A DNA stretch of 64,000 bases from an uncultured bacterium (GCA_963977015.1 CAXBMO010000004.1:1-64000), one strand, 5' to 3'; positions 1 to 26,407 are shown, counted from the first letter of the stretch. The notes: generated by a model from the sequence alone, not told the origin. Program-made: numbers and translations.

Positions 1-77
1 CAAGCTACAAGCTACAAGCTACAAGCTACAAGCTACAAGCTACAAGCTACAAGCTACAAGCTACAAGCTACAAGCTA
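1..77. repeat. Perfect heptamer tandem repeat (CAAGCTA)x11, runs to the window edge
   Basis: Read directly from bases 1-77. The TAG stop of the 68..1588 gene lies inside the array. Confidence 0.98.
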
Positions 78-1588
78 CCCGTCGCTTTTTGAATCAAGGT
101 CTTCCGTGCCTCCCGAGGCCGCTTCGCGATCCGCTCATCCTCGTAGAACGAGTCGTCGTTGTAATGCGTTGTCGAGATCTCCTCAAAAATCGCCCCATGC
201 AGAGTATGAAACTTGTGCCAGGCATTGGGCTTGATCAGCAGCGTCTCACCAATCTTCATTTTGTGGGATTGACCGTCGAGCTCCACTTCTAAATCCCCAT
301 GCAACAACTGAAACGTCTCTTCCTTCCGCTTGTGAAAGTGGTAGGGATGTTTCTGGCGGGGCAACATCAAAATGATCTTCTTGCAATAGTTGCGGTTCAC
401 ACAATCGACAATCACACAGCCAAATTCCCGAAACCGCTCCAACCCGTAATGGTGGGACAGCTCGATCCCGCTATTCTCATTCACCGTGATCCGTCCCTCA
501 TTCAGCATCCCATGCGCCTGGAGCATGATTTGCGATAAAATCTGTTCGTTGGATGGCTCGTAACTCGCCAGCGCTTCCGCCAATGGCTCATTCACCTTGT
601 AGTTGCGATCCGCCTTCATCGACTCGCGCCACGATCCGCTTGAAAGTTGCTCTTCCTGAATTGGCATGGCGAAGAAGACGTCCTCACGTTTGATCTTCTG
701 CCCCTTCTTCAACGCGGCTTTCGCATACACACCCCGCGCCAGGGACTTCAACGAATCCGTTTCTTCAAGCGAAGCCGGGGCCCTGCCCTCAACTCCCACC
801 ATCTCCACCGCCAGCTTGTAAGCGGCAATCCACCGATCCAACTGTTCGGGACTCGACGAATACGCATTCAACTTGTGCTTCTTCGTCGCCAGTCCGACGT
901 GCCGCTCAAACAACTCGGCCCCCTTCGCAAAGGCGATTTGAATCGGCTCCGTCGCGTCCTGATCCTCGTGGGTCGACCAACCGATCGGCACGTTCCGATA
1001 GCGGTGCTTGAAAAGGGAGATCTGATTCAGATTCAGCTTCGCCGGCGGCGTGGGATAAATCGCAACGCAATGCATGATCGCAAATTGCTTGGCCCGTTCT
1101 TCCAGAAAATGCACCAACGCATCGATCTTGCCGATACTGAGTCCGCCCGTCGAAGCCACGATCGGCTTCTCCTCTTCCGCGATTCGCTCCAAGAGTGGCC
1201 AATCGCCCGCCGAACAACTCGCCACTTTCATGAAATCGAGATCCAGATCCATCAGCAGGCCAACCGACGTTTCGTCAAAGGGCGTCGACATCGTCAGCAA
1301 CCCGTGATCCCGGATGAAATCCGCCAATTCCTCATACTGCTTCGCCGAAAGCGCAGTCTCAATGAATCGCGGGATGTGCTTCACATCTTTCCGATCCACA
1401 AAATCCGGATGAATGAAGGTCGGGATATGGCGAAACTGAAACTTCAGAGCGCCTCGCACCCCGTGCTTTGCCACCACCTCAGCAACACCGGCAATGATGC
1501 GTTTGGCGTGATCCATATCGCCCTGGTGATTGTTGGCCAGGTCGAAGATGAAGAGGTCGTGCAAGGATGAATTTTCGGGATTTCTCAT
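68..1588 (-). CDS. NeuB/SpsE-family ulosonic acid synthase with SAF domain and C-terminal cupin (D-lyxose isomerase-like) domain
   Basis: NeuB motifs FIFDLANNHQGD, STPFD, MKVASC, STGG, MHCVAIYPT, GWSTHE, ERHV; SAF region RGVYAK..LKKGQKI; cupin YCKKII..Q.HPYHFHKRKEETF, WHKF, FEEIST. Confidence 0.85.
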   Translation of the reverse strand: MRNPENSSLHDLFIFDLANNHQGDMDHAKRIIAGVAEVVAKHGVRGALKFQFRHIPTFIHPDFVDRKDVKHIPRFIETALSAKQYEELADFIRDHGLLTMSTPFDETSVGLLMDLDLDFMKVASCSAGDWPLLERIAEEEKPIVASTGGLSIGKIDALVHFLEERAKQFAIMHCVAIYPTPPAKLNLNQISLFKHRYRNVPIGWSTHEDQDATEPIQIAFAKGAELFERHVGLATKKHKLNAYSSSPEQLDRWIAAYKLAVEMVGVEGRAPASLEETDSLKSLARGVYAKAALKKGQKIKREDVFFAMPIQEEQLSSGSWRESMKADRNYKVNEPLAEALASYEPSNEQILSQIMLQAHGMLNEGRITVNENSGIELSHHYGLERFREFGCVIVDCVNRNYCKKIILMLPRQKHPYHFHKRKEETFQLLHGDLEVELDGQSHKMKIGETLLIKPNAWHKFHTLHGAIFEEISTTHYNDDSFYEDERIAKRPREARKTLIQKATGSL

Positions 1589-2707
1589 TTAGCTAATCAA
1601 CATTTCAGGGTTCCACCGCAATTTGACTCTGGAATCACTATACAACACCGACAACGGAATCCGAAACGCCCATTGTTTCGGCGATTCCAGCTCATACTTA
1701 CGTAGTAGCTTCTTACCGCGAGATGAAAAGAAGCTGTCATACCGATGATAATTCAACAAATTGTAAGAGTCTCCGAGAACGGCTGCAATCCCTCCCATCA
1801 AAGCTTTGCCCAAAATCTCCGAGGCATCAAACGACAACGCTTTCTGATCAATCTCACCGGGAGATCGATCAATGTTTTCGTGGCCTTTTTTAGCATGAAG
1901 GTCAGTCCCTGCCTTTAGGGTTTGCTTCAACACAATGGGATCAAACTCGATTTCAAGAAAATCGCACAGTTTTCTCAAAACCTGTTCAGGTTTCCGGACA
2001 AGATCCTCATACCGTACCATCCGATAGTGATCAGGTGCCAAAGAGTAGTTATAAGCACCAGCAATTAACGAACGCTTCCATTCATAAGCCATGTTGACGG
2101 CTCCCAACCAATTCACCTTCTTACTTGCAATCACCCCTGATCGAACAATTCGTGATCGTAAATTATCAAATGGGTCACGAACGAAGTGCACAAACTTCAC
2201 CTTGGGAAAAAGCTGACGTAAACGAACGAAGTGATACTCATTGCCCGGCGTTTTCTCCAACACGTGATCCCAGTCGACAGTTCTTCTATCTACCAGTTCG
2301 GCGTAAATCGAAGCCAACTCTAGAAATATATCTCGCTCGTTCGCCCCTTCCCGAATTACCCCAATCAGACGTTCTTTGTCTTTCGACACGTCATCCGAAG
2401 ACTGACGAATTGCACTCCAAGGACCAAACAACTTCCAATTTACACTTGGATCAATCGACTCCGAAAAGGGAAGGTTTTGGCCTCGCTCGCGATCAAACGG
2501 GCGGCCAACGACATGAAGAAAGTATTGTTCCGAATCGTTACGCCAGCACTTGATCTTTGGGGCAATTTTCAAAAATTGCACCTCGTCTGTGAACGACATC
2601 ACCCTTGGATGCCCATCAATCAGGTGGCTAAAGAGAGAGGTCCCGGATCTCGACACCCCTCCGATGAAAATTAACGTCGGATCAGTTAACACAAGATTTG
2701 TCTTCAA
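1589..2707 (-). CDS. PAPS-dependent sulfotransferase (Sulfotransfer_3-like)
   Basis: IFIGGVSRSGTSL (5'-PSB loop), EKTP, VRDPFDNLRS (3'-PB), VRYEDLV..PE. Confidence 0.85.
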   Translation of the reverse strand: MKTNLVLTDPTLIFIGGVSRSGTSLFSHLIDGHPRVMSFTDEVQFLKIAPKIKCWRNDSEQYFLHVVGRPFDRERGQNLPFSESIDPSVNWKLFGPWSAIRQSSDDVSKDKERLIGVIREGANERDIFLELASIYAELVDRRTVDWDHVLEKTPGNEYHFVRLRQLFPKVKFVHFVRDPFDNLRSRIVRSGVIASKKVNWLGAVNMAYEWKRSLIAGAYNYSLAPDHYRMVRYEDLVRKPEQVLRKLCDFLEIEFDPIVLKQTLKAGTDLHAKKGHENIDRSPGEIDQKALSFDASEILGKALMGGIAAVLGDSYNLLNYHRYDSFFSSRGKKLLRKYELESPKQWAFRIPLSVLYSDSRVKLRWNPEMLIS

Positions 2708-2729
2708 GATTCATCGAATCGAGCAGCAA

Positions 2730-3827
2730 TTATGACAGTGCTCGTGCACTAAAGCCTTGCGAGTAATCAATCTTTACTAACCGCCCCTCTGCATTTGATC
2801 GGAAAGCCGCGGCAACGACCAGCATCGTTTCCAATCCGTGTTCAAGCGTCGAAACCATTTGATGGGCTGGAATCGTTCCATCGAGATAGCCCGCAACTTG
2901 GTCGATCATGCCTTTAAAATCATCGGGACGCGTCTTCGGAAACCGTTTCGTTTCCTGGGATTCAGCCGTGCCATGGACGAGGGCATCGCACCCGCTCTCG
3001 TAATTGGCATACCAGTCGAGAAAGCCATCAGCCCCCTGAATCCGGACATTCTTGATCGGCGGCTCAGTCACGACATCCTGGATCACCGAACCCGACAAGC
3101 CGGATTCCGTGCGCAGTTGCAGTTGGGCAAGCCGGTCATAGTCCGCTCCGCCCTCGCTCACGAAATCAATCGTCGCCATCACTTCGGTGACTCTACCAGT
3201 CCCCAGTTTCCGAGCAAAATGCTGCCAAATATTGACACCGTGAGAATGCTCACCAAGCGCCCCCCCACCCCGTTTCCAGAATCCGAGGTAGGTGTCCGAC
3301 GGACCAGCGAGCCAAGGATGGGCCTTGTAGATCCCGCCCCAATGCTCGACCCAGCGAACCTGAAGCGACTCCGGCGCTCCAATCTTCCCTTCATCGATGA
3401 GTTGTTCCGCAACCTGAGTATTCGGCGTGGCCGTGTGATTGTAGTCAACCAAGACACAAGTTCCGCTCTCCCTCGCCAATTCAGCCAACTCGGCACATCC
3501 TTTCAAATCCGGAGTCGCCAACGGCTTCTCAATCAACAGAACTCGAGGCGGATCCTTGGAAAGGATATCCTTTGCCAACGCGAAATGGGAATCCGGAGGC
3601 GTCCCGATAATCGCGACATCGAATCCAGCCGCACTCGCACTCCCCTCGGCAACTTCCAAGCTGATTCCCTCGTCCCATGCCTTGTAACGTTCCGGATAGA
3701 TCTCCGTGCGGGTCCGTTCCAAAGCCTTCGGGTCGAGGTCGGTCATGGTCACATCCCAACCTCGCCCCCGGCATCCGTGAGCCAAATGATTGCCGATCGA
3801 ACCGGCACCAAAAATTCTTACATTCAT
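2730..3827 (-). CDS. Gfo/Idh/MocA family NAD(P)-dependent oxidoreductase
   Basis: IFGAGSIG, TPPDSH, LIEKPLA, GGGALGEHSH. ATG at 3827 preferred to the GTG at 3851. Confidence 0.85.
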   Translation of the reverse strand: MNVRIFGAGSIGNHLAHGCRGRGWDVTMTDLDPKALERTRTEIYPERYKAWDEGISLEVAEGSASAAGFDVAIIGTPPDSHFALAKDILSKDPPRVLLIEKPLATPDLKGCAELAELARESGTCVLVDYNHTATPNTQVAEQLIDEGKIGAPESLQVRWVEHWGGIYKAHPWLAGPSDTYLGFWKRGGGALGEHSHGVNIWQHFARKLGTGRVTEVMATIDFVSEGGADYDRLAQLQLRTESGLSGSVIQDVVTEPPIKNVRIQGADGFLDWYANYESGCDALVHGTAESQETKRFPKTRPDDFKGMIDQVAGYLDGTIPAHQMVSTLEHGLETMLVVAAAFRSNAEGRLVKIDYSQGFSARALS

Positions 3828-3942
3828 AAATTTACTAAGATTGGTTCCCACCTGAAGTTTCTCGGTCTAGAAAACTTCCATCCCAAATTAGGTAACATTA
3901 AATCCTATTCTATCCTAAGACATTGCTCCCCCCGCAATGTGC

Positions 3943-5355
3943 CTACCTTTTCACCCATTCGCCCACAATCCCGGTCAGCGTCTCTGCGCCTTGCCTCGAC
4001 AAGTGATCCACATCCCTAAAGTTTGCATCTTCTAAGCCACTACAACCAGCGCGGTCAATATCTTTAAAAAAAAACGTTCCGGGATATTCTTCACTCAAGC
4101 GGATGAATCGCTCCATTAATTTTTTATATACCTCACGTCCGATACCATCATTAGCAGCAACACTGTCACCAGTTACGCCATGCGCAGGTGGCGTAAATCC
4201 ATAAAGACAAATTTTTCGGGCTCGGCAAAGCCGAATCATATTCTCCAACAATTGAATCTTGCTCTCATCAATCTCGTAGTATTTCGAACTAGACAGCGCT
4301 CGTTTCACTTTCAGCTTGAAGCCTAAATCAAAGTTTTCCGGTGCGTTTACAGGCTCTTTAAGCTCGCCAAATTCATCATAAACCCCATTTGTAATGATCG
4401 AATCAGATCTGCTCTTTTTCGCTCCGCAAATCGGCTTTGAAGCCATAAACTCGGCATAAGCGTTGCTCGACAACAATGAAGTCGCCGCTCTTTGGTGCTC
4501 TCCAACATTGAACATCCTCGGAGACAAACCAATGATGACGATCTTCAACTCTGTTGCTTCCATCAAATAGTCACGAAGAACTACCATACTATATGGCAAC
4601 CGTGTTCCAGCGATTGCAAAATTAAACGCCTTACCTTCAAATCCGGCGATCTCGTTAATTTTCGACGGCAACACCCCTTGATCAACCCGCGAGTCGCCAA
4701 TTGTAGCTACTGTGACCTCGCCGCAGATCTTGGTAAATTTTTGAACTTTTTCATCCATCACCGTGTTTGGATATCCGTTGATTTTCGGAATTTTGAGTTC
4801 CTGTCCTGAATTGATGAAAAATTTCCCGCCATGGAAATTATCATCAAATGGCAACGAATCTATTATTTGTAGCGAAGCGATTTCCAGCCAATCCCGCCTT
4901 TCGACCAACTCGAGTTCGCAGATTTCTCCAACTGAATCAAAATATCTCTGCAGAACTCGGCGATACATTCCTACTTGCGCAACCTGAACAATTTCATTTG
5001 TTTTCAAATTTTGGAATTTCTGAACTACCAAGGCAGATTCATACGGCCCATTTTGAAATCCAGGAGGAAGATCACTTGTTGCTAACAACTTGGCTTCAAT
5101 AAGGCGAGGTGACACACTAAATCCTGAGAGCTTTCCTGTTGCATCTTCAGTGCTTTCATCAGGTATTGATCCACTTTCATTCTCGGACAATCGGATCAAT
5201 GCTGCGATGCTCCCCAAAAGTCGATCCTTGTTACTCGAAAACAACCATCCTGTCAGGAAACAGGCAGCAAACAGCAAAACAGTTACCAAATTGGGACGCC
5301 CCCCAAAAACGGAAGTCAGCAACTGTAGGTTTTTCAATCGAGTAAAGAATCTCAT
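3943..5355 (-). CDS. Membrane-anchored protein with C-terminal SGNH-like domain (DltD/AlgX-like)
   Basis: N-terminal TM helix; IGDSR, FNFAIAG, IIGLSP and D-x-x-H (DVDHLS) motifs. Confidence 0.55.
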   Translation of the reverse strand: MRFFTRLKNLQLLTSVFGGRPNLVTVLLFAACFLTGWLFSSNKDRLLGSIAALIRLSENESGSIPDESTEDATGKLSGFSVSPRLIEAKLLATSDLPPGFQNGPYESALVVQKFQNLKTNEIVQVAQVGMYRRVLQRYFDSVGEICELELVERRDWLEIASLQIIDSLPFDDNFHGGKFFINSGQELKIPKINGYPNTVMDEKVQKFTKICGEVTVATIGDSRVDQGVLPSKINEIAGFEGKAFNFAIAGTRLPYSMVVLRDYLMEATELKIVIIGLSPRMFNVGEHQRAATSLLSSNAYAEFMASKPICGAKKSRSDSIITNGVYDEFGELKEPVNAPENFDLGFKLKVKRALSSSKYYEIDESKIQLLENMIRLCRARKICLYGFTPPAHGVTGDSVAANDGIGREVYKKLMERFIRLSEEYPGTFFFKDIDRAGCSGLEDANFRDVDHLSRQGAETLTGIVGEWVKR

Positions 5356-5409
5356 TTTCCTTTTTCGAACTTAGTGAGCTTTGTTCACCCTTTGTGATGC
5401 GGGTTGGAT

Positions 5410-6396
5410 CTATATCAGACCCAATCGAGAAAGATCCTGAACATCAATCAACCCTACAGGCCTGTCTTGATCGTCCAGCACCACCAGCTCGTCGATCCGA
5501 TGTCTTTCTAACACTGCCAAGACTTCTGTCGCAAAACGATCAGCTTTGGTCGTGATAGGCTGACGAGTCATCAATTCTTTGACCGGCAATCCCGCGATTT
5601 GTCCGCCGTGCTCCCTGAATGCCCGGACAAAGTCACCATGGGTAAAGATTCCCGCCAACGCCGATCCATCCCGTTCTGTCACGACCACCGCTCCCGAGCG
5701 ATGGCTGGTCATTTCGCCCAACGCATCATCAACCGTCGCTTCGCGATTCAACACTGCGATTTCTTCCAAAGGGCGCATCATATCACGAGCCAAAGTCAGG
5801 AGCTTCCTGCCAAGAGTGCCCCCTGGATGAAACTTGGCGAAGTCGTCTGCCTTGAATCCGGACGCTTCCAGCAGGACCATGGCAATGGCGTCACCCAGCG
5901 CCAACATCACCGTCGTACTCGATGTCGGTGCCAGTTCCAGCGGACAGGCTTCCCGCTCCACCCTGACGTCGATCACCACATCGCTATGTTTCGCCAGAGT
6001 CGAATTCACATTGCCCGTCATCGCGATGACGACGACTTCGAAGCGTCGCAAGGCCACCAACAAATTGATCATCTCCTCAGTCTCTCCGCTGTAGCTCAAC
6101 GCCAACACGGTATCGCCGTCAAACACGATGCCAAGATCGCCGTGCAGTGCGTTGAGCGAACTCAGCGAAATCGCCGCGGTTCCCGTACTGGTCAGCGTCG
6201 CGGCGATCTTGTCGCCAATGTGGCTGCATTTCCCCACCCCGCAGACAATGACCTTTTTTTTTGCAAGGCTGGCCACCTGGATTTTACCGACCGCATCCGC
6301 GAAACTTTCATCTAGCGACTCAGCTACCCGCCGCAGTTCATGGACTTCTAAGTCCAGAATGCGTCGACCACTCTCGATGACTTCACTTTCCGTCAC
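5410..6396 (-). CDS. kdsD: KpsF/GutQ family arabinose-5-phosphate isomerase (SIS plus CBS pair)
   Basis: KIAATLTSTGT, ALHGDLG, SYSGET, EACPLELAPTSSTT, FHPGGTLG, GIFTHGD CBS region. Confidence 0.9.
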   Translation of the reverse strand: MTESEVIESGRRILDLEVHELRRVAESLDESFADAVGKIQVASLAKKKVIVCGVGKCSHIGDKIAATLTSTGTAAISLSSLNALHGDLGIVFDGDTVLALSYSGETEEMINLLVALRRFEVVVIAMTGNVNSTLAKHSDVVIDVRVEREACPLELAPTSSTTVMLALGDAIAMVLLEASGFKADDFAKFHPGGTLGRKLLTLARDMMRPLEEIAVLNREATVDDALGEMTSHRSGAVVVTERDGSALAGIFTHGDFVRAFREHGGQIAGLPVKELMTRQPITTKADRFATEVLAVLERHRIDELVVLDDQDRPVGLIDVQDLSRLGLI

Positions 6397-6499
6397 GGCT
6401 CAGGTTCTAGAGTTAAGAACAACTTGCTCCAGATGGCGCAAGTTTCCTATTAATACAATCGAGATGCTAAGCCGCATTACCTTCCTGATCTGCTGGTCG

Positions 6500-7426
6500 T
6501 CAAATAGCTTTCCTATAGTCGTAAGCTTTTGGAAGTTTACCACCCAACACGTCGCGGAGGCGATGGTTGTGTTCAGCAAACTGCCATTGCAAGGCCTGCT
6601 CTAGCTCCTCACTGAAAATCCTGTTATCGCCCTGCAGATCCAAGCGTGGTGTTGAAATTCGAGTCCACCACCGAACAAACCGGCCACTCCACCCAATTAG
6701 CCGCGACTGAATCGGCCGCGACAATCTCGGTGCAATATGGTAGCTGGCCATGCTTCGCTTAACCAGCGTTCCCATTATGATACTTTGCGGACTCGAATTC
6801 ACGGGCGCGAGGTCAAACGGTGCTTTCAAGGGTACGTCCAACAGCTCGATTAACTGCGCTAAAACCTGTTCCGGATCATTTCGAAAGTGTTCGAAGTGAA
6901 ATACATGAAGTCGTTCTCTCCCGACAACCTCGATAAGCTTCGAAACCATCGACGCGAAATCCAGATTCAACACGGCACAGCGGCGCTTCCTATCACAACT
7001 GCCCTCTGGCGGCAGGCCGGAGAACGCGCTCCCATCCCAACCAAGAAATTGTCCAGGCGTCATATACCGGCCCTTCTTAACTGCCAGGCCATAGATCGAC
7101 TGCAGCCAATCCGTCGGCTCGCGAAGAAATAGTATAACGTCAGGAACTGGTTTCAATCTATCAATCTTGAACAGTCCTGGAAATGGTTGCGGATTCCAAG
7201 GCTGGAAAGACAGCCCCTCGGAGGAGATAAGAAGTGGTTGCTCCAAAAGCGCCTCGGCCAACAGCGAATCCAGTTCTTGGACAGTTTCATTGTAGACCAC
7301 CCTCCTATTCAAAGCAGAAAAGACTTCTGGTGAATTGTAAGCGACTCCCTCCAAGTTCGGAAACACTTTTTTCTGAAGAAAGGTGCTCGCGGTCCGAGGC
7401 AAGCCAATATGGAGAAACCATTTCAA
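6500..7426 (-). CDS. Sulfotransferase-family P-loop protein
   Basis: LHIGLPRTASTFLQ, LISSEGLS, LREPTDWLQSIY, FEHFRNDP. Confidence 0.75.
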   Translation of the reverse strand: MKWFLHIGLPRTASTFLQKKVFPNLEGVAYNSPEVFSALNRRVVYNETVQELDSLLAEALLEQPLLISSEGLSFQPWNPQPFPGLFKIDRLKPVPDVILFLREPTDWLQSIYGLAVKKGRYMTPGQFLGWDGSAFSGLPPEGSCDRKRRCAVLNLDFASMVSKLIEVVGRERLHVFHFEHFRNDPEQVLAQLIELLDVPLKAPFDLAPVNSSPQSIIMGTLVKRSMASYHIAPRLSRPIQSRLIGWSGRFVRWWTRISTPRLDLQGDNRIFSEELEQALQWQFAEHNHRLRDVLGGKLPKAYDYRKAI

Positions 7427-7460
7427 TTGAAAAGCGGATAAGAGTAAGATCTGGATGCCC

Positions 7461-9278
7461 TTAAGCGATCCCCTGAGTCACACAAAGACGGTGAAAGAAG
7501 GACTCAGAGCGTAGGTTCAAGTCGGTGAAATTCCCCTCTTCGATCAGTTTCCCTCCCCTCAAGACGTAAATTCGATCGCAATCCCGCAAGGTCGACATAC
7601 GGTGGGCAATCAAGATAATTGTCCTCTCACCAGCCAGCCTCTGGATCCCTTCGTGGACAATTTGCTCAGTTTCGGAATCCAGCGAAGCTGTCGCCTCATC
7701 GAAGATAAGAATTGGAGTTCCTTTGTAAACCTCGCGAGCGATCGAAAGTCTCTGGCGCTGTCCTCCAGAAAGGCGCACCCCACGATCACCGACGACTTCA
7801 TCATACCCATTAGGCAGGGTTTTCAGCACCTCATCGAAACGGCTCACATCGGCAGCGCGATCGAGTTTGGCGCGGTCCTTGTCTGTATTACAGCCTCTCC
7901 AAAGGGAGATATTATTGGCAACGGTGTCATGGAACACAACAGGCTCCTGGATGACATACGCAATCTGGGAACGAATTGATTTAAGGCACAGATCCCCGTA
8001 ATCATCTCCATCGAAGGTGATCTGACCTCCACTTGGTTGGATCAATCCCGTCAGTAAGTCAACCAACGTGGATTTCCCGGCTCCTGAAGGTCCGGCTATT
8101 CCGATCATCTCGCCCTTTGTGATCTTGAGAGAAATGTCATGGAGAACGGGTTCATCTCTGCAGTAAGCAAAGCTTACCTCGTTCAATTCGATAGCTTCTT
8201 GAAACCGGCAACGATCATTCTTACCTGAGATTTCCTGATTCTTCTGCAGTTCTTCCTCAATCTCAGCGACGATCTCCACGGCTCCGGCCCGATTGCAAAA
8301 AGCCTGCCACGATTCTTGCAACTTCACCAATTGCTGGAGTGCGCGGTAAAATAGTAGACCTATCACGATAACTGCAGCAACCGGTTGCCCCCGCCCAATT
8401 ACAAACGAATACATGACGGCTGCAATGCCGAACAAAAGAAGCAACTGACCAAAAGCCCGCACCCCTTCCGTCACCCAAAGCCCTCTCATTCGTAGATGGC
8501 GAAACCGAAGAATGGATTTGGTTACTTGATTTGCAACCAAATCATTCGAGGCGGTGGCCTTGAGATATTTAAAGTAATTGAGAAATTGCAGGTTGAGCTG
8601 CTGCATTCGCCCTCTCTCCCGAGATCTTAGGCCAGCTAACATTCTTCCATATCGGGCGGGAAAACGCAGCAAAACCATCGCAACCAGTCCTACTACGCCT
8701 GCACCCAAAGTGACCATCGGCTCAGCAACAAGAGCAACACTAAGAAACCCCACCGCAAACACCATTGCCGAGACGACTTGAACGAACTTGGTAAGGGACA
8801 TTACCTTGTCCCCAATCTCCGTTGTCAGACAATTGTTAAGGCGTCCCTGCGCCTGAGTCGAAAAATACGAATAACTAGCTCCACCGAGATTCGTGACAAA
8901 GCGTTCACGAAGTCGTTGTTCCAAGCCGATCTCGATCCACCCCTGCACCGTAGCTTGAAAGCTTAAGAGAACCGTGCGTAACAAACCCACCACGACTACA
9001 ATTCCAAGCATGGTTTCAAACGTCGATGACAAGCCCAATCGCTTCAATAATGCAGCCCAGAAGGAAGCGACTTGGGACGAACTATCGGCCAATTCTCCCG
9101 ATGAGAGCAACGGAAGCAACGCCATGATGTTCAGACTCTCCGCAACCACACCGAGGAAGCAGAGCCCTACAAAGGCATGGAGACGCCATCCAATCTCCCC
9201 AGCAAAGTGGCGGTAATACTGGACGACTCCACGGATTGGGTTTGCGGAGAAAGAATTTACTGAAGAGGCTCTTACCAA
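7461..9278 (-). CDS. ABC exporter, fused permease/ATPase (MsbA/PglK-like glycolipid flippase)
   Basis: N-terminal TM helices; GPSGAGKST, LSGGQRQR, ILIFDEATASLD, IAHR; located in the glycan locus. Confidence 0.85.
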   Translation of the reverse strand: MVRASSVNSFSANPIRGVVQYYRHFAGEIGWRLHAFVGLCFLGVVAESLNIMALLPLLSSGELADSSSQVASFWAALLKRLGLSSTFETMLGIVVVVGLLRTVLLSFQATVQGWIEIGLEQRLRERFVTNLGGASYSYFSTQAQGRLNNCLTTEIGDKVMSLTKFVQVVSAMVFAVGFLSVALVAEPMVTLGAGVVGLVAMVLLRFPARYGRMLAGLRSRERGRMQQLNLQFLNYFKYLKATASNDLVANQVTKSILRFRHLRMRGLWVTEGVRAFGQLLLLFGIAAVMYSFVIGRGQPVAAVIVIGLLFYRALQQLVKLQESWQAFCNRAGAVEIVAEIEEELQKNQEISGKNDRCRFQEAIELNEVSFAYCRDEPVLHDISLKITKGEMIGIAGPSGAGKSTLVDLLTGLIQPSGGQITFDGDDYGDLCLKSIRSQIAYVIQEPVVFHDTVANNISLWRGCNTDKDRAKLDRAADVSRFDEVLKTLPNGYDEVVGDRGVRLSGGQRQRLSIAREVYKGTPILIFDEATASLDSETEQIVHEGIQRLAGERTIILIAHRMSTLRDCDRIYVLRGGKLIEEGNFTDLNLRSESFFHRLCVTQGIA

Positions 9279-9416
9279 ATTTTACCTTTCTTCTAAACGT
9301 TGGATCTTAAGGCCGTGTAATTCTTTTCAGGATTGAGTAATTCCAGGACACTCTTATTCATCGACCTCTATAAACTGCAGTTTGCTCTTCTACAGTGACC
9401 GGCTTAGAAATCGTTG

Positions 9417-11348
9417 TCATTGGCCATTTGATTCAAGCCTTAGCCAGCCTAGCTCATGGATTCGCCGGCCATAATACCTTGCGCCTTCCACGGTGTAGTG
9501 GCCGTAGTCGTAAAACACTTTTCGTCCTTCCGGCGTGACTGCGAGACAGGTTTTTCGCTCCGGGTTGCTCATGTATTCTGCTTTTTCCAAGAGAACTGCC
9601 CCGGTCTTCCTGGCGATCTTGCGGATCTCCGCGTTGATGGGAGGCACTTCGTCCAGTTTACGATTGTCCCACAAAAACCGGTTAATATCATCAAATGTGT
9701 AGCTCCCCTGAGGTGTGTTCCGCACAAACCAGTCAAATGGCGGCAGATTCTCAATATACAGAAACTCGATCGTATTGGTAGCGACCAGAACATTCTTCCC
9801 TCGCTGCTGAAGGCTCCGTATCACATGTTCCAAATTCTCAATATCACGAACGCCCCCATGTTCTTTGTGGTTGGGAGCCGCAATCCGGCTAGAGATCAGC
9901 ACATGATCTGCCTTTTTAAACTTTTTGGTTTGATAGAATTCTTGAAATATGGCATCCGGCTCTCCAATTTCCAAGTTGTAGAGACAAAACTCCATGTTCG
10001 GGAAGCCGTCCTGGTTTAGCATCAATGCTACATAGAAGTCGATCGCGTGAGAATCTCCAACAATAAGGACTTTTTCCGTATCCTCTTTTGTTGAAAATTC
10101 TGGCTGTTTTTCACAGAAGAATGCTGCTTTGCCATTTTTCTCTCTCTTCAGTAGAGTATTGTCGAATTCGTAGTGGTTGTAAAGTGCTGCGAGTTTGGGA
10201 AAGCGATTCATGATCCCTCCTTCAGCCAATACGGCTCCGGAAAAAACTATGATCGCCGCGGTCGCCATCCCCATGGATGTGGCAAACTTTGGCAGGGAAA
10301 TCCTGACCGGTTTCCGGAAAAACTGTTCCACCGTAAAATAGGTCACCGAGGCGAGAATCACGGACACCCCTAGAAGCGAGAGTTTCTCCCACATGCCCAG
10401 GGAATGGTCATGAATCCTGGCGAACGCAAAGACCGGATAGTGCCAGAGATAGAGCGAATAGGAGATCAAGCCAATGAACACCATCACCTTGGTGGAGAGC
10501 AGCCGAATGACCAGACCTCCCGATCCGGCCGTAGCAATAAGCAGAACGGTTCCCCCCACACAAACCGTCGTGATCAGGCCCGGGTGGTTGTTCTGCCCAA
10601 CCCCGATAAAGGAACCGATAATCATGACAGTTCCCAGCAACGGAAGCGATCCTCGAGGAAGCCAACCAAGCTTGAGCCATGGCTTTCGATCATCGAGAAA
10701 CACCAGCATTCCCCCAGCAAGAAGCTCCCAAAGGCGACTGGGCAGCATGTAAAACGAAAAGGAAGGGTGAATTTTCGTGAGCCAGACGGCAGCCCCAAGA
10801 CTGGCAATCATCAAGAGGAGAAGAACACTAGGCAAAACCCTCGGCATCGTTCTCCAGAGGAATAATAAGAGTAGCGGGTAAAGAATGTAGAATTGCTCCT
10901 CGACCGCCAGAGACCAAGTATGAAGAAAAGGCCTCAACAAGGCGGATTCAGCCCCGTATTCCTGCAAGCTGAAGAGCCAATAGGCGTTGGAACAAAATCC
11001 GAGCGAGGCCAGCAGGGACTTCACAAAGTCGATCAGTGCGGACGGGAGCAGCAGAAACCAGGCGACCGGCAACGAAACCAGCATCACGGTTAGCAAGGCA
11101 GGGAGGATACGCCTCGCTCTGCGCTTGTAGAAATTGGCGATCGAAATCGTTCCTGTTTGCAACCATTCCCTTCTCAAGATTGAGGTGATCAGAAACCCGG
11201 AAATCACGAAAAACACATCAACCCCGAGAAATCCACCTTGGAGCAAAATCCCGTCTCCAAGAGCGAACTCCGCGTGGTAAATCAGCACCCCCAAGACTGC
11301 GAGTGTTCGCAGTCCGTCAATTTCCGGACGGTAGTGGATTCCGTTCAT
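9417..11348 (-). CDS. OafA/YrhL-type O-acyltransferase (AT3 plus SGNH domain)
   Basis: YRPEIDGLR, GFLGVDVFFVISGFLIT, HTWSLAVEEQFY, ISYSLYLWHYP, VGDSHA, DYGHYT. Confidence 0.92.
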   Translation of the reverse strand: MNGIHYRPEIDGLRTLAVLGVLIYHAEFALGDGILLQGGFLGVDVFFVISGFLITSILRREWLQTGTISIANFYKRRARRILPALLTVMLVSLPVAWFLLLPSALIDFVKSLLASLGFCSNAYWLFSLQEYGAESALLRPFLHTWSLAVEEQFYILYPLLLLFLWRTMPRVLPSVLLLLMIASLGAAVWLTKIHPSFSFYMLPSRLWELLAGGMLVFLDDRKPWLKLGWLPRGSLPLLGTVMIIGSFIGVGQNNHPGLITTVCVGGTVLLIATAGSGGLVIRLLSTKVMVFIGLISYSLYLWHYPVFAFARIHDHSLGMWEKLSLLGVSVILASVTYFTVEQFFRKPVRISLPKFATSMGMATAAIIVFSGAVLAEGGIMNRFPKLAALYNHYEFDNTLLKREKNGKAAFFCEKQPEFSTKEDTEKVLIVGDSHAIDFYVALMLNQDGFPNMEFCLYNLEIGEPDAIFQEFYQTKKFKKADHVLISSRIAAPNHKEHGGVRDIENLEHVIRSLQQRGKNVLVATNTIEFLYIENLPPFDWFVRNTPQGSYTFDDINRFLWDNRKLDEVPPINAEIRKIARKTGAVLLEKAEYMSNPERKTCLAVTPEGRKVFYDYGHYTVEGARYYGRRIHELGWLRLESNGQ

Positions 11349-11511
11349 CCAATCAACGAATTTTGTAATAATGCGACGACTCGCTCACCATTTCGGCACG
11401 GAGCGGTTCGGTAGCAGTTTTCGATGCCTTCCAAGGCTTATCCGCCGTGGACGACATTTCGTTTGCCTTGCTGGTCGCTTTCCGTTCGCCAAATAGGCCA
11501 ACTAATACCCA

Positions 11512-13035
11512 TCAATTGCCCGCCTTAACTTCCCGGAGCAATTCCCGGCGCATTAAGACCGGCAACTGATTTTGCCTAAGAAACTCGGCATAGTAAACCC
11601 GGATCTCCTGAATTGATTCGCCAGCGAATTCCCGTCGGAAAGACGGAATCATTGACCAAATATGGGCCGGGATCGGAAGATAGCGATTCCAAAGGGGCCT
11701 TTTAATCGGGTAGTTGGATCTGGCAAACTTCACGAGCACTCGATCCAGTTCGTCAGCGCGTTTCGGATCGAACTGATTTTCACCCTTGGCTCGCATCACC
11801 TCATCGTAGTCTTCGAGTGAACGACAATCTTTGAGCGCACGATAGTGGTCTTTTGAAAACACCGCACCGAAACATCCCACCATGGTCGGGCGATTGATCA
11901 GGTAATTGAACCGCGCCTGCGCCACGGGGAAATCGAACGGGCCAAAGTCTTCTGGTGCGAACCGGGTTTCCTCTCCGCGTTCGTCCACTCCAACGAACTC
12001 GAACCGGTGGGAAACCGGAGAATCGAACCAGGTTAACCCCTGCACCATTCGCGTCATCAAACCGATTCCCAAGGCCCCCAGTGCACAGTAGCCCATCTCC
12101 GTGAGTCCAAACGATCCCCACTTCGTCGCGAAATAGGCTAGAGCTAGGACGAAATACATCCATTTCCAGAACAATATGCCCGAAAGGGCAAACACTCCGA
12201 CATGGAAGCCACAAATCGCGATCGCAAAACACCACATAACAGCGGGATGAAGCGCGATTGACAGAACAGAGAGTTCCACCATCAAGGTCGCGATGAGGAT
12301 GATTCCATTAATCTTGTCAATCCGAGCACGAAGCGCCTTCCGGTGGGGCCATCGCTTCATCCAGCCGTTCTGCGCCTCAGCCGCCACAGTCAGGTTGCTC
12401 AATCGATTGGTCGGGAACCAGCCATGCAGAATTTTCGACCAAGCCGGCTTGGCATAACAGGCTCCTGTTACGGCGAGTAGCACCCCGATGAACTGAGGCT
12501 CCGTAAAATTCGGATAGAGACTCATCAGAATCGCGGAAAGACTCCCGGCAAAGTGAGCCACCAGGACGAGAGCCTTATCGGTGATACTGATATGAATCGG
12601 GGTTCCTTGGAGTCGGTAAAATCCTACCACGAGAATCGTAAAGAGAAGCGGTAGACAGGGATGCAACGATTGGATCGCGAACCCGACAAGTATGGCAAAC
12701 CGTAACCCCCATTGCCAAGTTGACTGGAGGAAGTGCGGCGGGGAAAATGCCGTTCCGAGCAACAGGGGAACAGAAATAACCGTGAGAATGACTCCAACAG
12801 CGCCGTGATCTCCCCAACCAGTAGCCGATGCCCCCCCCCAACCAGCAACACCACCACAGAACAGAAGGAAACCGATGGGCCCGAACCGTCGAACTACGAG
12901 TTTAAGGTTCGCGATGCCTACGTCCCCCTCTGCCGCCTTTGGCTTTGGGGCAATTGCCAGCACCATCAACAAATCACCGACACCGTAAAGGACTAACAAA
13001 ACAATCAACCAAGTCCAATCTGCGATCAAGTTCAT
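11512..13035 (-). CDS. Polytopic membrane protein with HTTM-like segment and soluble C-terminal domain
   Basis: Many TM helices; Y..PAWSKI..GW, TLMVEL, FHVGVFALSGILFWKW resemble HTTM-domain proteins. Confidence 0.5.
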   Translation of the reverse strand: MNLIADWTWLIVLLVLYGVGDLLMVLAIAPKPKAAEGDVGIANLKLVVRRFGPIGFLLFCGGVAGWGGASATGWGDHGAVGVILTVISVPLLLGTAFSPPHFLQSTWQWGLRFAILVGFAIQSLHPCLPLLFTILVVGFYRLQGTPIHISITDKALVLVAHFAGSLSAILMSLYPNFTEPQFIGVLLAVTGACYAKPAWSKILHGWFPTNRLSNLTVAAEAQNGWMKRWPHRKALRARIDKINGIILIATLMVELSVLSIALHPAVMWCFAIAICGFHVGVFALSGILFWKWMYFVLALAYFATKWGSFGLTEMGYCALGALGIGLMTRMVQGLTWFDSPVSHRFEFVGVDERGEETRFAPEDFGPFDFPVAQARFNYLINRPTMVGCFGAVFSKDHYRALKDCRSLEDYDEVMRAKGENQFDPKRADELDRVLVKFARSNYPIKRPLWNRYLPIPAHIWSMIPSFRREFAGESIQEIRVYYAEFLRQNQLPVLMRRELLREVKAGN

Positions 13036-22872: not shown

Positions 22873-24198
22873 CTACGGTTGCCGTGACGGCTCGACAGAA
22901 ACCAGAGTTTCCGACAACCACCGACAATGTGCTCTTCTTGGTACTAAGCGGTGTGCCGCACCATTGAGAACCAACTTTTCTATTTCGCAGGCGTTATGAG
23001 GTGGAAACTTGGGTTCCTTCCGTTGGCTTTTCCCGGTTAGACGAAGTAGTCGCTGCTTGGCGAGAATCTGACTAATTCTCCGTCGATCCGTGGCTCCAAG
23101 AAGATTAAGTTCTTCCTTCCGAAAGCTAACAATATCATCTACTCGTTCGAATACCGGTCGAACTCGATCTAAGAAGGTCCCCTGTACATTGGCTATGACC
23201 GGGGCACATTTAGCCAACGCCCTTTGGATCGCCGCCGTGGGTGGATCTGCGATCAGACGCCGCTCTATCGCACGAAATACTTCATCCTCAGTGTAGGTCA
23301 CTTCGCTGATTTCAACCGGCAACGTCTGCGTGCCTGCATAGACACCATTCGGAAGGTAGGATATAGGATGATGACCACTGAACAACGCCTCAATCGCAGT
23401 AGTGCAGTCGAGGTGAATCACTATCTTCGCGCAGGAACTCGAACGTGAAATGGGTCGTCGGCCATCGTCGACAAATACATTGGGAACCAATGTAAATTTA
23501 TCCTTATAGGTTGCAGCAATTTCAACTGGATGAGGACGAATGAGAATATTAAGATCAGGATACCGCTTACTCAGATTCGATATCAACTCGAAATACGATT
23601 TCATATCCATCTTACTCTGTTCGATCGATTTGCGCTGATCGTTAGTGAGTTGTTTTCCGTTATAGATCCGAGAGTTGCAAGGAGTGAACTTTGTGTTGAT
23701 TAGAATGTACGGACGTAACTTGGAGATCTCCTGATCTAGATCGGCATGATAGCCGGCCAGTTCTTTTTTACATAGATCAAACCGCGGGTTTCCAGTGATC
23801 ATAACCTGGTCACTGGAGAACCGCTCAGGCAATCCCCTCATCAAATTTGCCTGCTTGCTGCCCCATGCCCAATAGATTTGTCTTTCTGAGACTGACCCTT
23901 TGGGAAACCGCTTCTCAATTGCCGAATGGTACCGGTTCTCGGGATAAATTCCGCCTTCTTCATCAAGGCATATTCCAAATCCACCATTCTTAACAATATG
24001 ATCCTCTTCCTCGGCGCTCACGCCACCAACTGACTTGTCGATCCACATGACGGGAAACTTATTCCTCATCACCCAAGGCTTGATCGACTCCCTTCGTCCC
24101 ACTAGGCTTGTGAAACCAAGTTCCGAGAGTTGGCACGCAGTCAGGAAACGGGGTTCAAAGTCTCTTACCCGAGTTTCAGTAATCCAGCAAAGAATCAT
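22873..24198 (-). CDS. Surface carbohydrate biosynthesis protein (TIGR04396-like, probable GT-B fold)
   Basis: ETRVRDF, LDEEGG, WGSKQ, TGNPRFDL, ILINTKF, IRPHPVE, HLDCTTAIEA. Start taken at ATG 24198. Confidence 0.7.
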   Translation of the reverse strand: MILCWITETRVRDFEPRFLTACQLSELGFTSLVGRRESIKPWVMRNKFPVMWIDKSVGGVSAEEEDHIVKNGGFGICLDEEGGIYPENRYHSAIEKRFPKGSVSERQIYWAWGSKQANLMRGLPERFSSDQVMITGNPRFDLCKKELAGYHADLDQEISKLRPYILINTKFTPCNSRIYNGKQLTNDQRKSIEQSKMDMKSYFELISNLSKRYPDLNILIRPHPVEIAATYKDKFTLVPNVFVDDGRRPISRSSSCAKIVIHLDCTTAIEALFSGHHPISYLPNGVYAGTQTLPVEISEVTYTEDEVFRAIERRLIADPPTAAIQRALAKCAPVIANVQGTFLDRVRPVFERVDDIVSFRKEELNLLGATDRRRISQILAKQRLLRLTGKSQRKEPKFPPHNACEIEKLVLNGAAHRLVPRRAHCRWLSETLVSVEPSRQP

Positions 24199-24199
24199 C

Positions 24200-25264
24200 T
24201 TAGTCTTCCGCCTTGTAAAGTCGCAATTCCGAATGAAACCCATCCACAGTTTTAAACCCAAATGGATAGACATTGGTCGCAACCAGCTCGAAGCCGCGAG
24301 CTCTGAACATTCGGTCGTAATCACTCCCAAGTATGGGCCGATCAACTCCCCAAGGGCAGGTCTCGGATCGCTTCGGTTTCCCCTCTCTCAGATTCCGTAT
24401 CAATGCATATTTTGACTCAAGCCGCTGCATATGATCGAGATAATGCTCAACGATCTCAGGTTCCATTTCCTGAAACGAAATGAAATTGACAAACAGATCG
24501 ATTGGGCCTCGAATTTTTTCCAATTGCCAGGGGCACACAACCAAGGCAGAGCCACTAAATTTGTCCATTTCAATTTCAGCGGCACGTTTAGCAAACTGAT
24601 AGTCAAAAAAGGAACCTTCAGGATAAATAGAATTTAAATAGTAGGACGCGGCGAAAGCAGATGGTGGAATGTCTACGTCAACATACGCATAATCCCGGTC
24701 CGTATCCTTAAGAAGAATCTCACCCAACGTCCCGAAGCCGCCACCAACCTCCAACACCTTTGATAGATCGGATGTATCAACATTCTGTTTTAGAAAAACC
24801 AACCCGTTCAGATAATTCAACATGGATCGACTGAAGTTTCTTCCTTCAAAATTCCAATGTTCATCTGGACACCCCACTTTCGATTCCGAGCAATTGGAAA
24901 GGTGCGGGGGTTGGTCTGCCCTGTCTCCTGCCATGTAGGTCCGATAATCAGAATTTGCTAGATATGCACCGTTCCTAAGCCACTCAAACAATGCCCGCCC
25001 TTTTTGAGTTTCTAATTTTTCATTACCAGGAAGATTGGCGATCAATTCAACAAATTCCTGTCCGTAAAATGCCAGAGAGTCTAATTGATAGGTAGGAACG
25101 AAGCACCGCTTGGCACCAGGAAGCTGACGGAAGTTTTTGATATTCTCACCACACAGTTCAGTGCCTATTTCCAACAAGGCCTTCTCCCAGAACTGCGATG
25201 GCCTGTGGAGGGCACTTTGACATGACATATCGGACAACATTTCATCGAGAAGATTAGCTTTCAT
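24200..25264 (-). CDS. Putative sugar O-methyltransferase (TIGR04371-like)
   Basis: PSQFW, ESKVGCP, VLEVGGGFGTLG, VDIPP, DLFVNFISFQEM. Confidence 0.8.
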   Translation of the reverse strand: MKANLLDEMLSDMSCQSALHRPSQFWEKALLEIGTELCGENIKNFRQLPGAKRCFVPTYQLDSLAFYGQEFVELIANLPGNEKLETQKGRALFEWLRNGAYLANSDYRTYMAGDRADQPPHLSNCSESKVGCPDEHWNFEGRNFSRSMLNYLNGLVFLKQNVDTSDLSKVLEVGGGFGTLGEILLKDTDRDYAYVDVDIPPSAFAASYYLNSIYPEGSFFDYQFAKRAAEIEMDKFSGSALVVCPWQLEKIRGPIDLFVNFISFQEMEPEIVEHYLDHMQRLESKYALIRNLREGKPKRSETCPWGVDRPILGSDYDRMFRARGFELVATNVYPFGFKTVDGFHSELRLYKAED

Positions 25265-25345: not shown

Positions 25346-26407
25346 CTATACGCCTCCGACACCCAATAAATCCCAATCAAGCGGAGTTCCTCGCTCAATA
25401 TCCACGGCAGCGAAACGCCCCAATACCTGTGTGATGAATTTAGGTGGCAAGCCATGACCCGGCCGGATCGCACGGATGTTTTCCGCTGTAAATGCCTCCC
25501 CAGCTCGAATACGTTTTACCGCGAATAAAGAGCGCCGGTAGTCCCGTATCCCGATATCCGCGCTGACGGGACCATAGTTAACTTCACCCATGGCCTTTTC
25601 CGCGATACGGACTGCATCGACCATCGCTTTAAACTCATTTGGCTCCAGCGAGAAGGCGCTATCGGGCCCGCCATCAGTTCGACGCAACGTTAAGTGTTTC
25701 TCGATTATGCCAGCCCCCACAGCAGCCGAAGCCACAGGGACCGCAATTCCCATGGTATGGTCGGAAAGCCCGGCAACGACTCCAAAAGCTTCGGCCAAGT
25801 GCGGGATCGTCCGCAAATTCATGTCTTCAGGAGGTGACGGGTAGGCACTTGTGCACTTGAGCAGAGCCAAATCATGTGCCCCTCCAGTAATAGCGGCATC
25901 CACCGCTTCGGCAATTTCGCTCAAATTTCCCATCCCGGTGGAAATGATTAGTGGCTTTCCAGTTGCGGCGACCTTTTGAATCAACGGAATATCGACCAAC
26001 TCAAACGAGGCAATTTTGTAGGCTGGAATATCGAGAGTTTGAAGAAAATCCACCGCAGTAGCATCAAAGGGACTACTGAAGAAGTGAACACCAAGTTCTT
26101 TGCATCGCTCAGCTAGCTTTGGCTGCCAATCCCAGGGCATTGAACCTTCGCCGTATATGTCGTGCAAATTTTTGCCGTCCCACATCGTTCCCCCACTGAT
26201 CTGAAAGTGGTCCTGATGAGCATCGATCGTCATTGAATCAGCCGTGTAGGTTTGGACCTTAATCGCATCCGCGCCAGCCTCAACAGCGGCGACCACCAAC
26301 TCCATCGCTTTCGCGAAATCACCGTTGTGGTTCGCAGACAGTTCGGCAATGATCAATGCATGGCCCGAGCGGTAAGTTTTGCCGCCCATGGAAAAGGTGT
26401 CTTTCAT
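25346..26407 (-). CDS. pseI: Pseudaminic acid synthase
   Basis: IIAELSANHNG, KVQTYTADSMT, YKIASFELVD, LKCTSAYP, GLSDHT, GGPDSAFSLEP, RRSLF, IRPGHGL; pse gene context. Confidence 0.93.
   Translation of the reverse strand: MKDTFSMGGKTYRSGHALIIAELSANHNGDFAKAMELVVAAVEAGADAIKVQTYTADSMTIDAHQDHFQISGGTMWDGKNLHDIYGEGSMPWDWQPKLAERCKELGVHFFSSPFDATAVDFLQTLDIPAYKIASFELVDIPLIQKVAATGKPLIISTGMGNLSEIAEAVDAAITGGAHDLALLKCTSAYPSPPEDMNLRTIPHLAEAFGVVAGLSDHTMGIAVPVASAAVGAGIIEKHLTLRRTDGGPDSAFSLEPNEFKAMVDAVRIAEKAMGEVNYGPVSADIGIRDYRRSLFAVKRIRAGEAFTAENIRAIRPGHGLPPKFITQVLGRFAAVDIERGTPLDWDLLGVGGV

Follow-up and report, generated by a model that had tools for sequence, protein, structure and literature searches.

The fusion gene and the protein it encodes

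The stretch of DNA described here (the window) comprises 64,000 nucleotides from an uncultured bacterium (GCA_963977015.1 CAXBMO010000004.1:1-64000) and forms the start of contig C4 in a 6.9 Mb assembly, the genome being 95% complete. Its leftmost gene (68..1588, minus strand) encodes a protein of 506 amino acids in which a NeuB-type synthase, a SAF-like domain and a cupin of the lyxose isomerase type are fused, according to the open reading frame (ORF), Pfam, a match to PDB entry 3g8r, an AlphaFold2 model and fold matches. On the same strand, a sulfotransferase, a Gfo/Idh/MocA oxidoreductase, a GDSL/SGNH kind of protein and KdsD are encoded further upstream. The first-pass annotation of the window saw in the fusion, the oxidoreductase and kdsD a second ulosonic-acid route. 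The architecture of the fusion, its conserved partners and the sugar it may help to make are considered in turn.

The NeuB part forms a TIM barrel over residues ~11-270 (779..1558, minus strand), as placed by Pfam, the family alignment and an alignment with NmNeuB. Pfam assigns residues 47-265 to NeuB (PF03102) with 136.2 bits against a cut-off of 22.1. Residues 11-348 match 3g8r at 1e-82, whereas the N-terminal part reaches canonical NeuB, SpsE and PseI entries of the PDB only at 1e-15 to 1e-21, and the fusion is ~20-24% identical to the aligned solved chains of these enzymes. It also falls far under the NCBIfam equivalog cut-offs for NeuB_NnaB (TIGR03569, 135.6 vs. 399.65 bits) and PseI (TIGR03586, 124.2 vs. 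340.25 bits). The other NeuB homologue of the window (25346..26407, minus strand) is a true PseI, the canonical pseudaminic acid synthase, with 469 bits in TIGR03586 (cut-off 340). The separation of the two paralogs made in the first-pass annotation is thus borne out. A family alignment of 42 members, 45-84% identical to the window protein, was used to follow single residues. H207, H230 and K121 align with the motifs IGLSDH, LERHF (His) and YKIGS (Lys) of NmNeuB and are invariant in all members. The counterparts of H207 and H230 are presumably the metal-binding histidine pair of NmNeuB, and that of K121 its phosphoenolpyruvate (PEP)-binding lysine.

Residues ~275-345 (554..766, minus strand) were placed as a SAF/AFP-like domain by Foldseek alignment; no SAF domain was matched by Pfam in the fusion at E<=0.01. 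The AlphaFold model, built on the 42 family members, has a mean predicted local distance difference test (pLDDT) score of 91.6. Its first ~340 residues cover the whole chains of 3g8r, NmNeuB and CjPseI, including their C-terminal SAF-like domain. All 336 columns of 3g8r_B are aligned with a TM-score (TMt) of 0.94, NmNeuB entry 2wqp (348 amino acids) is aligned over 342 columns, and the NmNeuB and PseI chains over 337-343 columns. In the predicted structure, the SAF-like C-terminal domain of the NeuB family therefore appears to be present in the fusion despite the missing Pfam match.

A linker helix and the cupin occupy residues ~347-500 (89..550, minus strand), based on the alignment with a Thermofilum lyxose isomerase (TsLI) and the fold match. 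Pfam finds Cupin_2 in residues 407-462 (36.9 bits, cut-off 27.2). The Lyx_isomer family (PF07385) scores 27.1 bits against a cut-off of 20.8 on the whole protein, with no single stretch passing alone, and of the 120 best relatives, 114 carry a precomputed match to it. The last ~175 residues of the model align with complete D-lyxose isomerases (2y0o and 7nzo-7nzq) at TMt values of ~0.7, i.e., 0.68 for 2y0o (175 columns), 0.70 for 7nzq (178) and 0.71 for 7nzo (179). According to the available passages on TsLI, Mn and sugar are bound by eight residues, of which H75, H77, E88 and H143 are Mn ligands and K62, K86, E156 and D163 have substrate or catalytic roles (PMC8378251). Seven of them, when mapped through a HMMER alignment (with a numbering offset of 24 residues in the deposited chain), align exactly with K404, H417, H419, K422, E424, H458 and E470 of the fusion, all invariant in the 42 members. 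The eighth, D163, falls on N477, with the invariant D479 two residues away. The same passages describe a family which prefers lyxose and xylulose and accepts mannose and fructose, sugars of the lyxo/manno configuration (PMC8378251). No part of the fusion protein is better conserved than the cupin, whose tail contains an invariant basic stretch (R492, R495 and K496) beyond the region that HMMER aligned with TsLI. Judged by the active-site residues, both halves look catalytically intact, and the cupin appears to be functional as an aldose-ketose isomerase. The first-pass annotation was right to place a C-terminal cupin at about 68-520 and to point to a HPYHFH..KEE metal motif, which reads H414-P-Y-H417-F-H419...K422-E-E424 and is invariant throughout the alignment.

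The fusion belongs to a large family. A search of 5.8 billion proteins gave 4989 matches among 8000 scored candidates, and the best 120 of these 4989 are all 499-544 amino acids long, 58-94% identical and equipped with both NeuB and Cupin_2. Thousands of copies are held in the databases under generic names, e.g., 'N-acetylneuraminate synthase family protein'. When the cupin part alone was compared with 1.84 billion cluster representatives, 98 matches at 1e-30 were obtained. Among the best 150 cupin matches, 59 are of 470-559 amino acids and one is of 723, the remainder being shorter; some of the shorter ones are gene fragments, and others may be free-standing cupins of 165-175 amino acids. The longest protein (P0131, 723 amino acids) unites NeuB, a SAF-like region, the cupin and a haloacid dehalogenase (HAD) phosphatase in one chain. 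Long ORFs of 607-1263 amino acids in four loci (L030, L062, L074 and L058) were considered as triple fusions and rejected; they are open-frame extensions without an oxidoreductase domain. Outside the window, at G000:C4:142594-143013, the present genome has a weak free-standing cupin-like match to fusion residues 416-488, interrupted by one in-frame TGA.

A pattern scan with one genome per species delivered 79 loci of other species. They are labelled as Verrucomicrobiales, many Alphaproteobacteria, Thermodesulfobacteriota, Gammaproteobacteria, Bacteroidota (Chryseolinea), Marinimicrobia, Dehalococcoidia and one Kaiserbacteria metagenome-assembled genome. One locus (L063) stems from a cultured carrier, Desulfofustis glycolicus DSM 9705. 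Of 301 genomes sampled evenly from one phylum, 13 were matched at 1e-30, by a full-length fusion in 11 cases and over the N-terminal part only in two. The family is present in roughly 4% of this sample and in at least eight phylum-level groups. No study of a NeuB-cupin fusion was found in the literature on NeuB with cupins or lyxose isomerase, nonulosonic acid, Kdn (3-deoxy-D-glycero-D-galacto-nonulosonic acid) and mannose isomerase, a search which did not extend to supplements, where clade lists might be held. The word 'cupin' does not occur in the available text, supplements excluded, of a large nonulosonic acid (NulO) synthase phylogeny (PMC8208679).

The gene cassette and contig C51

The ORFs of the 79 loci were clustered and named with Pfam and NCBIfam, and the loci were re-scanned in six frames with hidden Markov models (HMMs) of the clusters. 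A Gfo/Idh/MocA oxidoreductase is present in 65 of the 66 loci that extend at least 1.5 kb upstream, mostly as the gene right before the fusion on the same strand. A NeuA/PseF-like cytidylyltransferase (CTP_transf_3) was found in 63 of the 64 loci with at least 2.5 kb downstream, and a HAD-IA phosphatase in 52 of the 64. Since the loci counted are also those from which the HMMs were made, these numbers describe co-occurrence and are no independent test, which is a point against the pathway proposed below. The usual gene order is oxidoreductase, fusion, HAD and cytidylyltransferase. The less constant companions are the TIGR04396 'surface carbohydrate biosynthesis protein' (48 of the 79 loci), ABC exporters (37 of the 79) and sulfotransferases, found no more than 10 kb from the fusion in 11 loci. 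A partner of the NeuC, LegB or LegC type, an aminotransferase or an acetyltransferase is not part of the core conserved among the 79 loci. Searches with the HAD protein against solved structures returned generic HAD-IA phosphatases only.

In the window, the oxidoreductase is encoded at 2730..3851 (minus strand), as identified by Pfam and by the ortholog HMM (547.9 bits). Its true start is probably the ATG eight codons in. The EKP and GEHSH residues are invariant in 24 orthologs. What had been noted in the first-pass annotation as an enzyme close to the fusion has turned out to be its near-universal partner.

The downstream half of the cassette was recovered on another contig. Contig C4 starts with eleven perfect copies of the heptamer CAAGCTA (1..77, no strand assigned), and this repeat holds the stop codon of the fusion. 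Contig C51 (3002 bp) closes with this heptamer repeat, in the same orientation (2948-3002), and across the assembly, runs of at least three tandem copies are found at these two contig ends only. On its minus strand, C51 carries, in order, genes for a 123-residue protein of the 23S-rRNA-IVP family, a 241-residue cytidylyltransferase, a 452-residue glycosyltransferase-like protein and the first part of a membrane protein. The contig is read as the direct continuation of the window, because the repeat is common to both ends and the gene order is syntenic with that of relatives. Indeed, in a 73% identical relative (L002), the fusion is followed by the cytidylyltransferase and then by the same glycosyltransferase family as on C51. 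In a 94% identical relative (L001), the sequence also breaks at a heptamer repeat, (TTGCTTG)n, at 10700-10737, directly after the fusion gene.

The cytidylyltransferase (C51:1800-2525, minus strand) matches CTP_transf_3 with 69.8 bits. A second enzyme of this kind was to be sought left of the window according to the first-pass annotation, and here it was found, with 391 bits in the cassette HMM, which gives 150 bits for PseF and 56 for KdsB. Compared with solved structures, it matches the synthetases of cytidine monophosphate (CMP)-activated N-acetylneuraminic acid (Neu5Ac) at 4e-26 (6ifd) and 3e-22, and KdsB at 1.7e-6. The PseF model gives 127 bits, and the KdsB models at most 53 bits against cut-offs of 155-281. 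By these scores, the enzyme is of the NeuA type, as expected of a Kdn pathway. Its 452-residue neighbour reaches 373 bits with the family encoded after the cytidylyltransferase in L002. It also has weak matches to Capsule_synth, the KpsC/KpsS family (24.3 bits, cut-off 20), and to the BFO_1060 family, which we take to transfer nonulosonates.

The repeat sits between the stop codon of the fusion and the next gene. Its coding-strand frames all stop within five codons, and the probable start codon (ATG) of the 23S-rRNA-IVP gene follows within a few bases of its end. Variation in repeat length could alter the expression of the downstream cytidylyltransferase and glycosyltransferase genes. A scan of positions 1-13300 for promoters and terminators gave sites no more numerous than in shuffled sequences. 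In marine sequencing runs, many unrelated short contigs carry the CAAGCTA repeat, with a depth of up to 5093.

Proposed pathway and alternative readings

Taken together, it is rather probable that the fusion family stands at the centre of a conserved cassette whose genes make a second ulosonic acid and activate it with CMP, that the product is nitrogen-free and Kdn-like, and that kdsD stands outside the route. In the proposed scheme, the cupin would isomerise a common ketose, most likely fructose-6-phosphate, to an aldose of the manno/lyxo type; fructose, xylulose-5-phosphate and sedoheptulose-7-phosphate are alternative ketoses. The NeuB domain would condense the aldose with PEP to a nitrogen-free 3-deoxy-2-ulosonic acid, i.e., Kdn, Kdn-9-phosphate (Kdn-9-P) or a close variant. 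Since a HAD phosphatase is usually part of the cassette, a phosphorylated intermediate is suggested, and the phosphate would be removed by this HAD in most lineages and, in the present one, by another enzyme or by none. Lineages that lack the HAD could rely on a general phosphatase, as has been argued for Prymnesium parvum, or on unphosphorylated substrates. The Gfo/Idh/MocA enzyme would carry out a redox step on the sugar. The NeuA/PseF-like cytidylyltransferase on C51 would then activate it, and the adjoining glycosyltransferase would add it to a surface glycan that also bears pseudaminic acid and sulfate. A Kdn-9-P-like route is favoured because the isomerase family acts on lyxo/manno-type sugars and because the cassette, like the Kdn-9-P precedents, has a NeuB-type synthase, a phosphatase and a cytidylyltransferase. 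A nonulosonate is preferred to 3-deoxy-D-manno-octulosonic acid (Kdo) because the cytidylyltransferase is nearer to CMP-Neu5Ac synthetases and PseF, and because the glycosyltransferases relate to the BFO_1060 family.

Several observations weigh against this scheme. No ortholog of the cassette HAD was found in the present genome, where the best HMM match reaches 37 bits and a single-protein query was negative, and it is absent from the L002 genome as well. No KdsC above the cut-off was found in the genome either, the best match to TIGR01670 being one of 25 bits on C14. A dedicated sugar-acid phosphatase of the Kdn-9-P pathway was accordingly not found in this 95%-complete genome, and without the cassette HAD or KdsC, the phosphorylated route stays a proposal here. 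The lyxose isomerases characterised so far use unphosphorylated sugars. Against solved structures, both single-sequence and profile searches with the oxidoreductase gave generic Gfo/Idh/MocA matches only, of ~43 bits or less. Moreover, a plain Kdn route needs no oxidoreductase, yet the enzyme is near-universal, so that the product is probably not simply Kdn. The identity of the sugar is inferred, as are the substrates, the order of the steps and the role of the oxidoreductase. In this genome and in L001, kdsD lies close to the oxidoreductase and the fusion, so that a local link is conceivable. Finally, the join between C51 and the window is based on the repeat and on synteny, without a spanning read. 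None of the contigs of four sequencing runs bridges the left end of the window, and the contig of one relative departs from the window sequence at position 89, with a 30-letter loose end that was not found on C51 when up to three mismatches were allowed.

The near-universal oxidoreductase, which suggests a product other than plain Kdn, would also fit a sugar acid of another chain length. The cupin could act on xylulose-5-phosphate, giving lyxose-5-phosphate and a C8 acid of galacto-type stereochemistry, or on sedoheptulose-7-phosphate, giving manno-heptose-7-phosphate and a C10 acid. An octulosonic or decaulosonic acid not described so far would result. The two ketose phosphates belong to central metabolism, and lyxose and xylulose are the preferred substrates in the available account of the lyxose isomerase family, with mannose and fructose accepted (PMC8378251). 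Nevertheless, the cytidylyltransferase and the glycosyltransferases are nonulosonate-like, the only characterised precedents use mannose-6-phosphate (Man-6-P), and direct evidence for another chain length was not obtained. Such a product is considered unlikely.

In the first-pass annotation, a Kdo- or Kdn-like isomer had been derived from an aldose made by the cupin or by the neighbouring KdsD, a KdsD/KpsF arabinose-5-phosphate isomerase (5410..6396, minus strand; kpsF 280.9 bits, cut-off 203.7). The gene is indeed present, with no kdsA, kdsB or kdsC in the window. In the Kdo version of this reading, KdsD would supply arabinose-5-phosphate, or the cupin a pentose, from which the NeuB domain would make an octulosonic acid, an isomer of Kdo, to be modified by the oxidoreductase. 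That kdsD lies upstream of the oxidoreductase, as the second gene in this genome and as the immediate neighbour in L001, is in line with this, as are the missing cassette HAD in this lineage and the weak Capsule_synth match of the glycosyltransferase on C51. The wider distribution of the gene speaks against it. A tblastn search located KdsD within 10 kb of the fusion in only one of the 79 other loci, namely that of L001, and in the L002 genome, the only kpsF match above the cut-off is on a different contig from the cassette. Among five further genomes that carry the cassette, kpsF exceeds the cut-off in three; the Dehalococcoidia genome, of no stated completeness, has a SIS-only match below the cut-off, and the Kaiserbacteria genome, likewise of no stated completeness, has no kpsF match.

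Furthermore, kdsD is the sole copy in this genome and is needed by a canonical kdsA on C3 (374 bits, cut-off 242) and kdsB on C18 (242 bits, cut-off 155). PF00793 is matched on C10, C30 and C3 only, and PF02348 on C18, in PseF (C4:31646-32005) and on C51. The cytidylyltransferase of the cassette is of the NeuA/PseF type, far from KdsB, and the invariant lyxose/mannose-type isomerase site fits arabinose poorly. Supply of the aldose by KdsD and an octulosonate product of this kind therefore appear quite improbable, and from the first-pass annotation, there remains a second ulosonic-acid route distinct from that to pseudaminic acid and equipped with an isomerase-like cupin. Because kdsD is present in a single copy, with canonical kdsA and kdsB elsewhere, and lies near the fusion in one of the 79 loci only, the simplest reading is that it serves ordinary Kdo synthesis by KdsA and KdsB and is merely located in a glycan locus. 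For the annotation of the genome, the Kdn-like pathway would be read as complete and split over two contigs, with kdsD not counted as part of it.

It was also considered that the keto acid is an intermediate consumed downstream, e.g., decarboxylated or grafted onto another sugar. This idea comes from an unfused, 3g8r-like NeuB (41% identical over residues 9-328), one of the two N-terminal-only matches mentioned above, in locus L092 (G083:C120, 9187-12134), directly downstream of a 621-residue thiamine-diphosphate enzyme, and from a cupin of the same type fused to a thiamine enzyme (P0158). L092 is a glycan locus with genes for GT2, an FkbM methyltransferase and an ABC-2 transporter, and the 16 scanned neighbours of this NeuB include no cupin, oxidoreductase, HAD or cytidylyltransferase. 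Together with P0158, it may represent a separate, keto-acid-consuming pathway, in which case the pairing of NeuB and cupin serves another pathway as well. This does not apply to the present cassette. No thiamine enzyme is among the conserved neighbours of the fused form, and the cytidylyltransferase in nearly all loci and on C51 marks the free ulosonic acid as the activated unit, which makes its consumption very improbable here. An ordinary Neu5Ac or legionaminic acid synthase with a decorative or regulatory cupin, as the generic database names and the intact NeuB catalytic residues might suggest, is scarcely credible in view of the equivalog scores, the low identity to solved NeuB, PseI and SpsE, the lack of NeuC-, LegB- and LegC-type partners in the core, and a cupin that is the best-conserved part and has a complete isomerase site.

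The genes next to the cassette belong to a glycan locus. Between the oxidoreductase and the fusion lies the gene of a 372-residue sulfotransferase (1589..2707, minus strand; Sulfotransfer_3, 93.4 bits), whose stop abuts the start of the fusion with a gap of 0 nucleotides and whose relatives were found in only two of the 79 loci. Two further sulfotransferase-like genes are located at 6500-7426, with a weak match of 19.8 bits, and at 17960-18709 (Sulfotransfer_4, 114 bits). Together with the sulfotransferases near the fusion in other species, they suggest a sulfated surface glycan carrying nonulosonic acid. Between kdsD and the oxidoreductase, a 470-residue protein of the GDSL/SGNH (DUF1574/DltD-like) kind is encoded (3943..5355, minus strand), with a GDS motif and a match of 42 bits to the C-terminal part of TIGR02171. 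An Atlas feature match of 0.93 to a GDSL-like cluster is a lead only, and neither a Pfam match nor a relative in the 79 loci was found. The protein is lineage-specific and probably modifies the glycan.

The pseudaminic acid locus is a long same-strand run at 13169-34447. Apart from PseI, it contains PseB (33410-34447), PseC (32025-33257), PseF (31325-32017), a PseG-like protein (30296-31321) and a NanM-type sugar O-methyltransferase (24200-25264), all on the strand of the locus. A TIGR04396 'surface carbohydrate biosynthesis protein' (22873..24345, minus strand), identified with NCBIfam, shows a relationship to glycosyltransferases of the BFO_1060 family. The locus also encodes two WbqC-like proteins, an AMP-dependent ligase, an SDR, a hexapeptide acyltransferase, a GNAT, an FAD oxidoreductase, several methyltransferases and a GH32/43-like protein. 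This content suggests a heavily decorated derivative of pseudaminic acid. Further to the right, a tandem repeat with a period of 119 (2.6 copies, 88% matches) is located at 51221-51539.

Nonulosonic acids shape the recognition of bacterial surfaces by phages, hosts and grazers and give extracellular polymers charge. It is possible, if doubtful at present, that the cassette makes an undescribed nitrogen-free ulosonic acid, either Kdn altered by oxidation or epimerisation or a homologue of the C8 or C10 kind, and that environmental bacteria from many phyla commonly carry it on their surface. In the present lineage, marine and verrucomicrobial, the acid would be part of a sulfated glycan that bears pseudaminic acid, with an expression perhaps variable through the heptanucleotide repeat. 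With an isomerase fused to the synthase, the enzyme should start from a central metabolite and could serve biocatalysis.

Comparison with known systems

The solved protein 3g8r, a structural-genomics entry from Chromobacterium violaceum named 'probable spore coat polysaccharide biosynthesis protein E', belongs to the same NeuB subfamily as the fusion (42% identity). Both have an extra FRxxxTFIHxxFxxRxDVK segment. In contrast to the fusion, 3g8r has 350 amino acids and no cupin. No functional study of it was found in the literature, the best 10 of 67 matches being unrelated.

The closest likeness in terms of pathway is to Kdn-9-P synthesis. As described in the available passages of one study, Man-6-P and PEP are condensed to Kdn-9-P in Bacteroides thetaiotaomicron and P. 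parvum, and the route of the former consists of the synthase BT1714, a Kdn-9-P phosphatase and a CMP-Kdn synthetase (PMC6200933). For P. parvum, the same passages give no recognisable phosphatase either and argue for a general one (PMC6200933). As far as that description goes, the cassette resembles this pathway in its NeuB-family synthase, phosphatase and cytidylyltransferase, in being nitrogen-free and in its start from a manno-configured sugar phosphate. It differs in that the isomerase is fused to the synthase, that a Gfo/Idh/MocA enzyme is near-universal and that the phosphatase is of the HAD-IA type. The Kdn-9-P phosphatase of B. thetaiotaomicron is presumably of a KdsC-like type.

The D-lyxose/D-mannose isomerases, i.e., TsLI (7nzo-7nzq), YdaE of B. 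subtilis (2y0o) and Z5688 of E. coli (3kmh), match the cupin over the whole domain (TMt 0.68-0.71, 173-179 columns) and share seven of the eight active-site residues with it, at an identity of 22-24%. These known enzymes are free-standing, catabolic and active on unphosphorylated sugars, whereas the cupin is fused behind NeuB-SAF and has the invariant basic tail.

A synthase with its own isomerase domain has a parallel in the KL1 and KL2 capsule loci of Serratia marcescens. There, according to the available passages, a 2241 bp ORF of Kdn-producing strains encodes NeuB fused to a COG1082 sugar-phosphate isomerase/epimerase (PMC9000132). In both cases, the synthase is paired with NeuA and the aldose would be self-supplied. 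Unlike the cupin, the isomerase of Serratia has another fold, and no oxidoreductase is mentioned in those passages. The recovery of the downstream half of the cassette on C51 across the heptamer repeat is new here, and so are the finding that kdsD is the single, housekeeping copy, the HAD-less, sulfotransferase-containing variant of Verrucomicrobiales and the NeuB-cupin-HAD and cupin-thiamine-enzyme fusions.

With the canonical NeuB, PseI and LegI synthases (NmNeuB 1xuu, CjPseI 8h2c and the PseI of the window), the fusion shares the TIM barrel and SAF-like domain, the histidine pair and the lysine for PEP. It is set apart from them by an identity of ~20-22%, by scores below the equivalog cut-offs and by a neighbourhood without partners that supply N-acetyl sugars. 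The conserved fusion family thus appears to define a fourth route beside those to neuraminic (Neu), legionaminic (Leg) and pseudaminic (Pse) acids.

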